Below, one piece after another: positions 3,977 to 7,677 of a DNA stretch of 23,016 nt. Below the pieces are notes generated by a model that ran no database searches, was not told the DNA's origin, and saw nothing but the letters and a program-made list of their open reading frames with translations. A program made the translations under genes and the position numbers. The stretch covers positions 1-23,016 of the IMG/VR virus record IMGVR_UViG_2531839468_000018. One strand, given 5' to 3'. Every line of letters begins with the position of its first letter. Positions within the stretch are counted from its first letter, which is position 1. The stretch is from a virus. Its lineage: Duplodnaviria; Heunggongvirae; Uroviricota; Caudoviricetes.

Positions 3977-4091
3977 GCGAAAAAGAAAAACCGCAGACAC
4001 GACGTATGCAGGACGTGCTGCGGTTGGCTGGTGAACTTTCGATAGTGCGAGTATTGAATGATTTCCAGCCGTTACCGATTTTACGTGTTTA

Positions 4092-4340
4092 TTAGTGAAC
4101 AAACCACTCGTCAGCAGACTCCCAGGTATCTTTCAGAGTCTCCTGAACAAATGTTTTTGCAGAATCTTTATCTGCGGTGCGTGTAACAGAAAGCCCATCG
4201 TTGCTGGTGGCTTTTACGATCACCTCTACATCGTCATAACGTTTACTGATGCGTCGGGTTAATTCTTCCTTTAACGCATCCACAGCACCGTTTGGCATTT
4301 TAGTCATTTTTTCTTTGGCTATGCAGATCTCAATACGCAT
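4092..4340 (-). CDS. dinI: DinI-family DNA-damage-inducible protein
   Basis: 82 aa, [35 protein letters not shown]...[20 protein letters not shown] closely parallels E. coli DinI (MRIEVTIAK...ILQETWESADDWFVSE); ATG at 4340-4338; LexA box upstream. Confidence 0.8.
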
Positions 4341-4353
4341 AAAAGTCCCTCTA

Positions 4354-4373
4354 TACTGTGTTTGTATACAGTA
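4354..4373. promoter_or_regulatory. LexA (SOS) box upstream of dinI-like gene, with a -35 TTGACA on the minus strand at 4400-4405
   Basis: TACTGTGTTTGTATACAGTA fits CTGT-N8-ACAG and lies 14 bp upstream of the dinI start. Confidence 0.6.
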
Positions 4374-4401
4374 TTATTTTTAACTGTATGGATAAACAGT
4401 G

Positions 4402-4632
4402 TCAAGAGGTCTTATTTCTGCTCCTTTGGAGCTCTTCAAAACGATTATGTAAAGATTTCGGATACAGTTCGGTATATACCTGCCATAGCACGTTTAATGA
4501 ACGATGCCCTGTAACCTGAGCGACTTCCTCAATACTAAAACCAGCCTCAAATAAGCGACTTGCCCCTTCTCTACGCAAATCATGGTATCGCAGATCTTTA
4601 ATACCTAATTTGCTTCTTACCCTCTGAAATCC
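4402..4632 (-). pseudogene. Tyrosine recombinase (phage integrase) C-terminal fragment, truncated at the IS66 left end
   Basis: Minus-strand translation ...GFQRVRSKLGIKDLRYHDLRREGASRLFEAGFSIEEVAQVTGHRSLNVLWQVYTELY...* carries the HDLR / GH / Y catalytic-region pattern of integrases; only ~75 codons remain. Confidence 0.5.
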
Positions 4633-4685
4633 GTAACCGGCTCATTTAAACCGTCTGGTCTGTTTCCTCCGGCTCTACAAAAATA

Positions 4686-5362
4686 ATGTCCATCATTTTT
4701 AATGGACACTATCGTATGAAACACCGGACCTGGATCACTGAAGCTTTACGTCTTCACTTTGAAGAACATTTACCCCGGGTTGTGGCCGGGCGTCGCCTGA
4801 GTGTACCAAAATCAACAGTTTGTAGTATGTTCGTGCGCTTTCGGAGAGCTGGCCTTTCGTGGCCTTTGCCCGCAGGCATGTCGGAGCAGGAACTTGATGC
4901 CTGCCTTTACGGACAATTTTCCACGGTACCAGTCGTACGTCCTGAAAGCACCGTTATATCCGAAGCCCCCGTGGTAAAAAAACGTCCCCGGCGGCCCAAC
5001 TTCCCTTATGAGTTTAAAATCGCCTTAGTGGAGCAGTCACTACAGCCCGGAGCCTGTGTGGCGCAGATCGCCCGGGAAAACGGAATCAACGATAACCTGC
5101 TCTTCAACTGGCGCCATCAATACCGGAAAGGTGGCCTGCTGCCTTCCGGAAAAATATGCCGGCACTGCTTCCCGTGACGTTAACGCCGGAGCCGGATAAT
5201 AAAATCCCGGCCCCCGCACAGGAACCAGAGCAGATAAATACACCGTCCGACAGTCTGTGTTGTGAGCTGGTTCTGCCGGCCGGAACTCTCAGGCTTAAAG
5301 GTAAACTGACGCCGGCGTTATTACAGACACTTATCCGCGAAATAAAAGGGAGCAGCCACTGA
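4686..5362 (+). pseudogene. IS66-family orf1 (TnpA-like), split by a frameshift near 5156-5177
   Basis: Frame A ends ..NWRHQYRKGGLLPSGKICRHCFP*, frame B continues MPALLPVTLTPEP...LRLKGKLTPALLQTLIREIKGSSH*; contiguous in intact family members as recalled. Confidence 0.6.
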
Positions 5363-5708
5363 TGATATCTCTCCCTGCAGGTTCGCGTATCTGGCTGGTT
5401 GCAGGTATCACCGATATGCGAAATGGCTTTAACGGCCTGGCATCAAAAGTTCAGAACGTCCTGAAGGATGACCCGTTCTCCGGACATCTGTTCATCTTCC
5501 GCGGACGCCGGGTGACCAGATAAAAGTGTTGTGGGCTGACAGTGACGGACTGTGCCTCTTCACCAAACGCCTGGAGCGGGGCCGCTTCGTCTGGCCAGTC
5601 ACCCGTGACGGCAAGGTGCACCTTACTCCGGCTCAGTTATCCATGCTTCTTGAAGGTATCAACTGGAAGCACCCGAAACGAACGGAACGCGCTGGAATCC
5701 GCATATAA
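5362..5708 (+). pseudogene. IS66-family orf2 (TnpB-like), frameshifted near 5510
   Basis: MISLPAGSRIWLVAGITDMRNGFNGLASKVQNVLKDDPFSGHLFIFRGRR then premature stop; the remainder (..KVLWADSDGLCLFTKRLERGRFVWP..) continues in another frame from 5526; consistent with a 1-bp loss in a G run. Confidence 0.7.
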
Positions 5709-5727
5709 CCCGTTGTAAAGTGAGGAT

Positions 5728-7298
5728 ATGGACACCTCACTTGCTCATGAGAACGCCCGCCTGCGGGCACTGTTGCAGACGCAACAGGACACCATCCGCC
5801 AGATGGCTGAATACAACCGCCTGCTCTCACAGCGGGTGGCGGCTTATGCTTCCGAAATCAACCGGCTGAAGGCGCTGGTTGCGAAACTGCAACGTATGCA
5901 GTTCGGTAAAAGCTCAGAAAAACTTCGTGCAAAAACCGAACGGCAGATACAGGAAGCACAGGAGCGAATCAGCGCACTTCAGGAAGAAATGGCGGAAACG
6001 CTGGGTGAGCAATATGACCCGGTACTGCCATCCGCCCTGCGCCAGTCTTCAGCCCGTAAACCGTTACCGGCCTCACTTCCCCGTGAAACCCGGGTTATCC
6101 GGCCGGAAGAGGAATGCTGTCCTGCCTGTGGTGGTGAACTCAGTTCTCTGGGATGTGATGTGTCAGAGCAACTGGAGCTTATCAGCAGCGCCTTTAAGGT
6201 TATCGAAACACAACGTCCGAAACAGGCCTGTTGCCGGTGCGACCATATCGTGCAGGCACCAGTACCTTCAAAACCCATTGCACGCAGTTATGCCGGAGCG
6301 GGGCTTCTGGCCCATGTTGTCACCGGGAAATATGCAGACCATCTGCCGTTATACCGCCAGTCAGAAATATACCGTCGTCAGGGAGTGGAGCTGAGCCGTG
6401 CCACACTGGGGCGCTGGACAGGTGCTGTTGCTGAACTGCTGGAGCCGCTGTATGACGTCCTGCGCCAGTATGTGCTGATGCCCGGTAAAGTCCATGCTGA
6501 TGATATCCCCGTCCGGTCCAGGAGCCGGGCAGCGGTAAAACCCGGACAGCCCGGCTGTGGGTCTACGTCCGTGATGACCGTAACGCCGGTTCACAGATGC
6601 CCCCGGCGGTCTGGTTCGCGTACAGTCCGGACCGGAAAGGTATCCATCCACAAAATCACCTGGCCGGTTACAGCGGTGTGCTTCAGGCCGATGCTTACGG
6701 TGGTTACCGGGCGTTATACGAATCCGGCAGAATAACGGAAGCCGCGTGTATGGCTCATGCCCGGAGAAAAATCCACGATGTGCATGCAAGAGCGCCCACC
6801 TACATCACCACGGAAGCCCTGCAGCGTATCGGTGAACTGTATGCCATCGAGGCAGAGGTCCGGGGCTGTTCAGCAGAACAGCGTCTGGCGGCAAGAAAAG
6901 CCAGAGCCGCGCCACTGATGCAGTCACTGTATGACTGGATACAGCAACAGATGAAAACACTGTCGCGTCACTCAGATACGGCAAAAGCGTTCGCATACCT
7001 GCTGAAACAGTGGGATGCACTGAACGTGTACTGCAGTAATGGCTGGGTGGAAATCGACAACAACATCGCAGAGAACGCCTTACGGGGAGTGGCCGTAGGC
7101 CGGAAAAACTGGATGTTCGCGGGTTCCGACAGCGGTGGTGAACATGCGGCGGTGTTGTACTCGCTGATCGGCACATGCCGTCTGAACAATGTGGAGCCAG
7201 AAAAGTGGCTGCGTTACGTCATTGAACATATCCAGGACTGGCCGGCAAACCGGGTACGCGATCTGTTGCCCTGGAAAGTTGATCTGAGCTCTCAGTAA
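5728..7298 (+). pseudogene. IS66-family transposase (TnpC), frameshifted near 6520-6545
   Basis: N-terminal leucine-zipper-like region and CxxC pairs in frame 1 (5728-6735); conserved C-terminal part (..[15 protein letters not shown]...[35 protein letters not shown]..) in frame 3 (to 7298). Confidence 0.7.
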
Positions 7299-7677
7299 AT
7301 ATCAATACGGTTCTGACGAGTCGCTTACGAATGATTTCCAACTGTTATCGATTTTGCGTATTTTTTGCATGAGAGGATTTTTACCTCCTCCCGCCGATCC
7401 TCCATGGCTTTACGCCTGTGTCTCTGGTCTGCTCTGTGCCAATTGCAGACGTTGTTGCACTGCAAAAATATCTTGTCCGGATCAAGGTATCGCCACCACT
7501 TGTTAGGTGGATTAATCCGTATTTATAACAAATACAATTCCCGGCTGTACCTATAAGCTGTTGTCAGTTATACAAAAGCGATGTAGTGTTCCACACATTA
7601 AATTTACAAACGTGGAAAAGTCCGTGTTTAGATACAGATTTTTCCGCTGAATAACCGCATATTTCCAAAGGTTTATC

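Follow-up and report, generated by a model that had tools for sequence, protein, structure and literature searches.

Insertion sequence (IS) copies with mismatched flanks, arising from homologous recombination between two IS copies, are well known in IS-rich Escherichia coli, Shigella and Yersinia. Classical lambda genetics provides a related precedent, in which an int- or att-defective lambda lysogenises by homologous recombination with chromosomal homology. The integrase stump of the present locus can be assigned to a third described system, the dusA-associated integrases (Farrugia et al. 2015, PMC4482086), for other members of which site-specific integration into, and excision from, dusA has been described (PMC4482086).

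The window analysed here, a stretch of 23,016 nucleotides from E. coli 3030-1 (IMG/VR record IMGVR_UViG_2531839468_000018), contains a dinI-like gene, an integrase stump and an IS66-family element framed by two copies of a short direct repeat. Our analysis revealed that the repeat itself is real, and that the arrangement reflects ordinary scrambling by mobile elements or else, possibly, a mistake of the assembly. The two copies are as follows.

4056 to 4093, plus strand: repeat copy 1, the part of a spacer that is still present in copy 2
7329 to 7366, plus strand: repeat copy 2, what remains (the 3' third) of another lambdoid spacer, severed exactly at the right end of the IS

The copies share 32 of 38 nucleotides (84% identity), or 30 of 35 when the comparison stops at the dinI stop codon. 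In 100 dinucleotide shuffles of positions 3000-9000 the best 38-nt pair reached at most 28 matches, and a degenerate 31-mer of the repeat occurs twice in the 23-kb window, against 0 expected. The sequence-only reading had described an imperfect direct repeat of ~45 bp at 4048-4088 and 7317-7361, the second copy overlapping the right end of the IS66 element; the repeat stands, with the limits given above. The leading CGAGT (4048-4052 and 7317-7321), which had been counted as homology, is a chance pentamer whose second occurrence lies inside the IS66 terminal inverted repeat. Positions 7317-7328 (CGAGTCGCTTAC) belong to that inverted repeat and are identical in other ISCro1 copies (L004, L008), and copy 2 starts with 7329, the base immediately after the IS, so that it does not overlap the element at all.

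By their homologies, both copies are almost certainly ordinary lambdoid-prophage spacer, the sequence that runs from the tail-fibre-assembly gene to the first 'b-region' gene. This first gene is dinI in the prophage on the left, where the spacer serves as the dinI 3' UTR on the minus strand, complete with a terminator.

3734 to 3976, plus strand: tfa', a tail fibre assembly fragment (C-terminal 80 aa; Pfam Caudo_TAP)
3977 to 4091: copy 1 of the complete lambdoid spacer (~105 bp), from the tfa stop to the dinI stop
3977 to 4023, minus strand: intrinsic terminator of dinI, a hairpin at 3991-4023 followed by UUUUUCUUUUU on the minus strand
4092 to 4340, minus strand: dinI-like gene, intact open reading frame of 82 aa (Pfam DinI; DinI-like in the relatives L002, L009, L010 and L011)

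The terminator folds as RNA at -31.3 kcal/mol (z = -3.35), with a hairpin and a U-run. A scan of 3900-4450 for the terminator consensus gave no match because the stem is bulged and escaped the simple consensus; folding revealed it. The tfa' fragment, for which the L002 annotation reads partial tail fiber assembly protein, is the last of the tail genes in the lambdoid prophage on the left. An Rfam scan of the spacer for small RNAs returned only 'IS009', whose match covers the tfa' DNA, and the IS629 (IS3-family) frameshift pseudoknot (ALIL).

The spacer is found in 5413 of 5426 complete E. coli genomes, at a median of 3 places per genome, and almost every lambda-like prophage carries it behind its tail-fibre genes. 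Copy 1 has matches in 199 phage records and is 98% identical to phage mEp460 over 117 nt; in this free phage the sequence lies mid-genome, at 22.9 kb of 44.5 kb, and in prophages it lies just inside the ends beside dinI. Copy 2 with its downstream sequence (query bases 1-113) matches phage 21 and lambda-like phages at 82-86% identity, and homology to phages of the lambda/phage 21 type extends to about 7441. In an uninterrupted relative (L001; strain 190) the spacer measures 104 nt and is 90% identical to window positions 3988-4090, and the position occupied by the IS in the window falls after ...GCGAGTATT. Between the two lineages present here the spacer is 84-90% identical. Copy 1 lies directly 3' of the tail fibre assembly gene (tfa' stop at 3976); copy 2 takes that position only in uninterrupted relatives, in the order tfa', cargo, spacer (L001), and in the window the IS stands there instead. 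Copy 2 lacks the first ~68 nt of its spacer because the right end of ISCro1 abuts it precisely.

Gene order and sequence identity identify the left flank as the terminal part of a lambdoid prophage that integrates at dusA, reading tail fibre, nleG, cif interrupted by IS2, tfa', spacer, dinI and int, in which copy 1 is whole and occupies its usual position.

1617 to 2947, plus strand: IS2, a simple insertion ~12 nt into cif, with a 5-bp duplication, ATACG (1612-1616 and 2948-2952)
4402 to 4632, minus strand: integrase stump, the last 76 codons (residues 290-365), from the translations and 100% DNA identity to L002

Window positions 1525-1618 and 2947-4632 are 100% identical to L002 and contiguous there, and the IS2 copy is thus an internal control that is correctly placed in the contig. 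Past base 4632, L002 continues with the rest of int and then dusA. The stump retains the HxxR and Tyr region, and its N-terminal 289 residues and the dusA junction are missing. Its integrase family carries the Pfam Phage_integrase domain. An exact-protein look-up of the stump (58 aa) found none on record. Intact homologues of int (99-100% identical DNA) adjoin dusA in L002, L009, L010 and L011, and an int split by ISEc8 adjoins dusA in L018.

The right flank, including copy 2, derives by the same kind of comparison from another lambdoid prophage, a degraded one at the thrW-yagP locus. Positions 7329-9082 are 100% identical to L001, which represents the yagP/paoD locus with its thrW-yagP remnant, and the window's own end is yagP'.

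7678 to 8643, plus strand: orf321, function unassigned, the last gene of the thrW-yagP remnant, which anchors the right flank there

The orf321 product has no Pfam or PADLOC match. In 10 of 10 long contigs orf321 lies to the right of EcoRII-type restriction-modification (R-M) cargo and is followed by yagP'/paoD or an integrase island. To the left of the spacer at the yagP locus, all ten contexts carry the R-M cargo and a tail fibre, and neither int nor dinI.

Between these two flanks lies the IS66-family element.

4625 to 4632: left flank octamer TGAAATCC (GGATTTCA on the int strand), a recurrent IS66-family target
4633 to 7328, plus strand: ISCro1-like IS66-family element, 2696 bp, with intact ends GTAACCGG...GTCGCTTAC
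7329 to 7336: right flank octamer GAATGATT, with no match to the left flank

The element is 99.8% identical to intact ISCro1 in L004 and L008. Its terminal inverted repeats start with GTAA(G/C)CG, from GTAACCGGCTC... at 4633 to ...GAGTCGCTTAC at 7328, and the same ends are found in the ISCro1 copies of L003, L004 and L008. It holds tnpA, tnpB and the DDE transposase gene in that order (Pfam HTH_Tnp_1, TnpB_IS66 and DDE_Tnp_IS66), each broken by a one-base homopolymer loss (at 5149, 5509 and 6512). An alternative IS boundary, or a microhomology join, 10-19 nt to the left of 4633 was considered and rejected, as the alignment puts the start of the IS at 4633; the extra IS-like matches to the left of this position are chance or target-preference similarity of the flanks. 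Other copies follow the 8-bp rule, with perfect duplications of CATTTAAA (ISCro1, L008) and GATTTCAG (ISEc8, L018). As the earlier reading had noted, no such duplication flanks the present copy, TGAAATCC at 4625-4632 facing GAATGATT at 7329-7336, and this member of the IS66 family is therefore not a simple insertion. Both junctions are precise IS termini, and were therefore made by transposition.

The two flanks come from different loci, each with 100% identity (L002 and L001). The earlier proposal is thus supported in that the element is no simple insertion; the repeat, however, was not the recombination substrate, since the truncation of copy 2 coincides exactly with an IS end that is itself intact. 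The positions of both loci were read in one complete genome, VG48B2: dusA lies at 0.21 Mb on the plus strand, adjoined by dnaB, and thrW-yagP' lies at 0.90 Mb. The distance between the native loci is thus ~690 kb; they share one orientation, and dnaB lies in the interval. A simple deletion or inversion between them is ruled out by the orientation and the essential genes. The suggestion that the rest of the prophage had been deleted is accordingly not demonstrable, a plain deletion being excluded by the same distance and by dnaB.

The most likely history, which we consider somewhat better than an even chance, comprises two independent ISCro1 insertions followed by homologous recombination between the two IS copies, together with the spacer identity of the repeat. 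One ISCro1 would have entered int of a dusA-type phage at GGATTTCA, a site also used by other IS66-family elements, and another the spacer of the thrW-yagP remnant at GAATGATT. RecA-type recombination between the two copies would then leave a single IS whose flanks do not match and which lacks a target duplication. The more likely route would be a double crossover (gene conversion) between prophages, or else a phage circle, excised and defective in int, would have integrated at the resident IS copy by a Campbell-type event. The predicted reciprocal junctions would be ...GCGAGTATTGAATGATT joined to GTAACCGGCTC and ...GTCGCTTAC joined to TGAAATCCTGCAGTAACAGAAG (equivalently GCAGGATTTCA to GTAAGCGACTCG). 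We infer that the repeat played no part, and that it is a by-product of two lambdoid 'tail ends' having been brought side by side.

The records bear on this history in several ways. The predicted reciprocal product, int residues 1-292 with a stop codon from the IS end, is on record from other samples only; one of these records has an ISEc8-like end, five are contig-end truncations at the same spot, and none is linked to 3030-1. A 297-aa int variant lacking the duplication is absent from the records. The two IS junctions, each searched singly, and the whole 5.2-kb block are absent from the 5426 complete E. coli genomes, which counts against this history; these genomes thus supply neither independent confirmation of the arrangement nor an ancestral or sister form of it.

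More speculatively, and with a rather low probability, the IS may have served as a surrogate attachment site: a dusA-type phage whose int had been knocked out could have re-lysogenised by RecA-dependent Campbell-type recombination with a resident ISCro1 at thrW-yagP, thereby moving the phage that carries cif and nleG. Linked to this proposal, GGATTTCA in int may be a preferred target of IS66-family elements. Other members of the family have struck the int target within 1 nt, three independent insertions of two IS types being known there, and the GTAAC/GTAAG motifs that flank the site resemble IS66 ends.

The main rival to two insertions and IS-IS recombination is a chimeric join made during assembly, to which we assign a real but clearly smaller likelihood. 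Strain 3030-1 would have ordinary ISCro1 insertions at two places, in int beside dusA and in the thrW-yagP spacer, both with 8-bp duplications of their own. The left flank of the former would have been mis-joined to the right flank of the latter through the 2.7-kb repeat, and the close pairing of the spacer copies would be an artefact. The source is a draft contig (AFDT01000010.1), and base 3 of that contig is where the window starts. The left piece spans no more than 4.6 kb and has repeats on both sides, namely the tail-fibre gene, inside which the contig starts, and the IS. Each of the three IS frameshifts is an under-called homopolymer, suggesting 454-type or otherwise error-prone reads, or a consensus repeat sequence. 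The absence of the junction pair from complete genomes fits a mis-join as well, and so does the 'deletion-type' nature of the junction, which at face value removes the ~690 kb that include dnaB. On the other hand, the same contig crosses IS2, with correct flanks and duplication, and IS629, suggesting that repeats were resolved with mate-pair guidance. Also against a mis-join, a 292-aa int fragment from the NCBI annotation of 3030-1 is not on record, although this is weak evidence, and the sequence itself bears no mark of a mis-join.

An adjacent deletion is improbable. A single ISCro1, in int or in the spacer, would have undergone intramolecular transposition to the other target with deletion of the intervening DNA. 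Precise IS termini without a duplication fit intramolecular events, and the outcome would agree with the earlier idea that the rest of the prophage was deleted. However, the dusA-type prophage end and the thrW-yagP remnant would already have had to be neighbours, in a tandem or rearranged array, whereas the int block lies beside dusA, and not near thrW-yagP, in all five complete genomes examined, and the ten yagP-locus contexts described above have no int or dinI to the left of the spacer. An adjacent deletion therefore needs an extra, unobserved rearrangement beforehand. Moreover, this IS copy has three frameshifts.

It is very improbable that the dinI, int-stump and IS66 block was put together by crossovers within the spacer copies or within other homologous prophage DNA, the first alternative of the earlier reading. 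Each genome does carry several spacer copies, at 84-90% identity between the two lineages, and such sequences mark lambdoid mosaic joints; in L001 the terminator part of the spacer is duplicated around R-M/GIY-YIG cargo. Yet a crossover in the spacer would yield a single hybrid copy with no IS in between. The window retains two copies, of which the second stops exactly at an intact IS end and not where homology runs out, and no sharp change of identity runs along copy 1 relative to the L001 type.

Least probable of all, and rejected, is the reading of the repeat as an attL/attR pair or of copy 1 as a solo IS66 end: the direct repeat does bracket an integrase remnant, but its copies are only 84% identical and overlap neither dusA nor a tRNA (the window contains no tRNA), the same sequence is internal to the free phage mEp460, the dusA-type int has its att on the opposite side, toward dusA (L002 and other relatives), and the solo-end variant, which the earlier reading had named as its refutation with copy 2 as IS66 terminal sequence, is rejected, copy 1 being without similarity to the ISCro1 terminal repeats, copy 2 lying outside the IS, and the repeat not being IS-end sequence.

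The repeat should therefore be taken neither for an att site nor for the boundary of a prophage. In the block around it two unrelated prophage regions meet, and callers of prophage ends that rely on a direct repeat with an integrase stump would consequently be misled here. If the join is real, the prophage end with the effector genes cif and nleG has travelled from dusA to the thrW-yagP hot spot by way of IS homology; events of this type are known from attaching-and-effacing E. coli. A mis-join would instead advise caution with draft contigs that cross multi-copy IS elements.

Compared with the dusA-associated integrases, the stump is the 3' end of such an integrase. In all the complete genomes examined, the intact form adjoins the 5' end of dusA and is divergent from it; in contrast, int here is cut at codon 290 and lies away from dusA. 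The repeated sequence is the spacer found at the tfa-distal boundary of the lambda 'b region', a mosaic joint and hot spot for morons, where the spacer directly follows tfa in lambda-like phages, phage 21, mEp460 and Stx phages, homology between lineages ends at the stop codon of the next gene, and cargo genes occupy the joint in L001 and L011. The present copies are functionally undistinguished from other lambdoid spacers, except that copy 2 is without the terminator half. Lysogeny by a defective lambda would give the order seen here, that is, phage tail end, dinI, int', IS and the chromosomal flank of the resident IS; we infer this likeness, the left half of the predicted structure lying beyond the contig start. 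Finally, the present IS resembles the known IS copies with mismatched flanks in its intact termini, its missing target duplication and its flanks traceable to two ancestral loci, and it differs from them in that a simple reciprocal exchange is excluded, so that gene conversion, a phage circle or a mis-join is needed.

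The window holds a genuine direct repeat, 4056-4093 against 7329-7366, in which 32 of 38 nucleotides are identical (30 of 35 if counted only to the dinI stop codon). In 100 shuffles of the region 3000-9000 that kept its dinucleotide composition, the best 38-nt pair reached at most 28 matches, and a degenerate 31-mer derived from both copies has exactly two occurrences in the 23-kb window, with none expected. Chance is thus excluded as the origin of the match. The sequence-only reading had drawn the repeat at 4048-4088 and 7317-7361, opening with CGAGT and with the second copy overlapping the right end of the IS66-family element. 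These limits are slightly off: bases 7317-7328 (CGAGTCGCTTAC) form the inverted repeat at the IS terminus and recur unchanged in unrelated copies of this IS, so that the leading CGAGT is not homology. Since the right end of the IS lies at 7328, copy 2 begins at the very first base beyond it. The repeat is not IS sequence; its interpretation as a solo IS end, or as an att site, is refuted. The features concerned are as follows.

3734-3976, plus strand, tail-fibre-assembly gene fragment (tfa')
4092-4340, minus strand, dinI-like gene
4633 (GTAACCGGCTC...) to 7328 (...GAGTCGCTTAC), 2696 bp, ISCro1-like IS

Copy 1 falls within a 115-bp spacer bounded by the tfa' and dinI stop codons, which on the minus strand is the dinI 3' UTR. 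RNA folding revealed a strong hairpin there (3991-4023) followed by UUUUUCUUUUU, the predicted standard intrinsic terminator of dinI, which a simple terminator scan had missed. The spacer is present in 5413 of 5426 complete E. coli genomes, at a median of three places per genome, and is among the commonest pieces of prophage DNA in this species. Matches also occur in 199 phage records, among them lambda-like phages, mEp460 (98% identity over 117 nt, mid-map) and many Stx phages, in which it adjoins dinI close to the prophage end. Rightward of copy 2, the sequence as far as about 7441 has its match in phage 21 and lambda-like phages at the equivalent map position, just past the tail-fibre genes. 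An uninterrupted right flank, 100% identical to window 7329-9082, is found in strain 190 (L001), where homology to the copy 1 region (window 3988-4090) extends over 104 nt at 90% identity. Projected on this spacer, the IS end comes after ...GCGAGTATT, and the IS therefore occupies the place of the second spacer's first ~68 nt, terminator included. The dinI stop codon is where homology between the two spacer lineages ceases, as is typical of mosaic joints in lambdoid phages.

The spacer's terminator half is itself duplicated in strain 190 (L001 3762-3799 and 7932-7969), flanking GIY-YIG / EcoRII restriction-modification cargo, and L011, one of the dusA-locus genomes, carries a methyltransferase between two tfa 3' fragments; the tfa-distal joint acts as a hot spot for the insertion of cargo. 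A match to Rfam IS009, a predicted E. coli sRNA, at 3735-3933 (214 bits) is merely tfa fragment coding sequence.

The IS is 99.8% identical to intact ISCro1 copies of other E. coli. The octamers flanking it, TGAAATCC and GAATGATT, are unequal, and hence, as the sequence-only reading had stated, there is no 8-bp target duplication. Elements of this kind do follow the 8-bp rule, with duplications at an ISCro1 copy of L008 (CATTTAAA on either side) and at an ISEc8 copy of L018 (GATTTCAG on either side). Relative to intact ISCro1, the window copy has three substitutions and three single-base losses, each in a homopolymer run:

5149, A6 to A5
5509, G4 to G3
6512, C3 to C2

These losses break tnpA, tnpB and the transposase, and look like pyrosequencing error; however, the change at 6512 is shared with two other assemblies (L007 and L008).

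The left flank is a dusA-type prophage end. Window 2947-4632 and, on the other side of an IS2, 1525-1618 are 100% identical to strain Z1323HEC0108 (L002), which has, in succession, cif, tfa', spacer, dinI, a complete tyrosine integrase gene (int, 365 aa) and divergent dusA. The dinI-int block adjoins dusA in three more complete genomes and in a fourth (L018) with int split by ISEc8. The integrase, of which only residues 290-365 remain in the window, belongs to the dusA-associated family of Farrugia et al. (PMC4482086). The IS2 (1617-2947) is a simple insertion with a 5-bp duplication, ATACG. It interrupts the effector gene cif some 12 nt past its start; the cif ORF now has 238 aa (2921-3637) and takes its ATG from within the IS2 end, so that cif may be dead, or its expression may be driven by IS2 or yield an IS2 fusion.

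In two complete genomes ISEc8 lies in the same int gene, 1 nt from the ISCro1 site of the window, with a clean 8-bp duplication, and in an independent short-read (Logan) contig an ISEc8-like end follows GGATTTCA. Elements of the IS66 family genuinely target this site in int. The int octamer (GGATTTCA / GATTTCAG) has been struck independently by ISCro1, ISEc8 and the ISEc8-like element, all within 1 nt; it is flanked by CTGTTAC...GTAAGAAG, similar to IS66 termini, and five more short-read contigs terminate at its exact position. The stretches concerned are:

window, 4625-4632
L018, 9030-9045 and 11800-11815
L012 (a further comparison sequence), 10868-10903

The right flank comes from the thrW-yagP locus, where it is part of a degraded lambdoid prophage. 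Strain 190 and 10 of 10 long contigs share the order tail fibre, tfa', GIY-YIG nuclease, EcoRII-type methylase and endonuclease, spacer and orf321, followed by yagP'/paoD directly or by an integrase-bearing island; the right edge of the window itself lies in yagP'. No match to orf321 (7678-8643) was found in Pfam or PADLOC. Klebsiella, Proteus, Leclercia, Pantoea and several Vibrio species carry copies of it at more than 90% identity, and in E. coli orf321 always adjoins EcoRII-type restriction-modification and GIY-YIG cargo where the prophage remnant of the yagP locus ends. Further along, IS629 (10363-11672, 1310 bp) lies between ...TCACTAAACTG and CTTTCACTAAAC...; in place of a clean 3-bp duplication these form a 9-nt direct repeat that is displaced from the IS ends. 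At 12499-12606, 4.9 tandem repeats of a 22-bp unit, GGTAGGTCACTGTGAGCTAGGG, look iteron-like; they lie upstream of a small phage-like element. A compact phage-like element at 14261-22405 encodes an HTH protein, a homologue of major capsid protein E, a tape-measure-like ORF of 609 aa, a Dit-like tail protein and, next to yagP', a tyrosine integrase of 454 aa. This element may be a satellite or remnant in the thrW-yagP hot spot.

Both loci are present in the complete genome of strain VG48B2, the dusA prophage end at 0.21 Mb and an empty thrW-yagP' site at 0.90 Mb, oriented as in the window, with dnaB two genes past dusA. At face value, the window junction would therefore be of deletion type over ~690 kb of essential DNA, so that neither a deletion nor an inversion of the simple kind between the native loci can account for it. 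Each of the two junctions coincides exactly with an IS terminus and was thus produced by transposition. The simplest reading, which we infer with slightly more belief than doubt, is that two independent ISCro1 insertions, in int and in the spacer of the thrW-yagP remnant, were followed by homologous recombination between the two IS copies. As a plain exchange would be a lethal deletion, two forms are left: gene conversion between the two prophages by a double crossover, of which the second would fall in tail genes left of the contig, or the insertion of an excised phage circle, its own integrase broken, at the resident IS copy. Either would bring a complete spacer, along with dinI and the int stump, to 3.3 kb upstream of the third of the resident spacer that survives, giving the observed repeat. 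The proposal that the block arose by recombination rather than simple insertion thus holds insofar as the IS is not a simple insertion and its flanks are foreign to each other; the repeat itself is neither IS sequence nor the recombination substrate, and the suggested deletion of the rest of this prophage is conjectural.

The main rival, though less likely, is an assembly artefact: two ordinary ISCro1 insertions joined chimerically through the IS repeat would yield the same sequence. The window corresponds to bases 3-23018 of a draft contig of 123 kb (AFDT01000010.1, E. coli 3030-1) whose left piece, between a repeated tail-fibre gene and the IS, is just 4.6 kb; the homopolymer indels in the IS are typical of older pyrosequencing data, and neither IS junction was found in any of the 5426 complete E. 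coli genomes. Yet the contig passes through IS2 with correct flanks. A single IS insertion followed by adjacent deletion is improbable, as it would require the two prophage ends to have been neighbours already, whereas in all five complete genomes examined the int block adjoins dusA and is not near thrW-yagP. Recombination inside the spacer copies themselves is hardly credible, given that both copies remain and that copy 2 ends at the IS terminus.

All components are of well-known kinds: a conserved lambdoid spacer, an IS66-family element, a dusA-type integrase and an IS with hybrid flanks. Two aspects would be mildly unusual, namely that an int-defective phage may have used an IS as its surrogate attachment site, and that IS66-family elements repeatedly struck one int octamer, a candidate preferred site.
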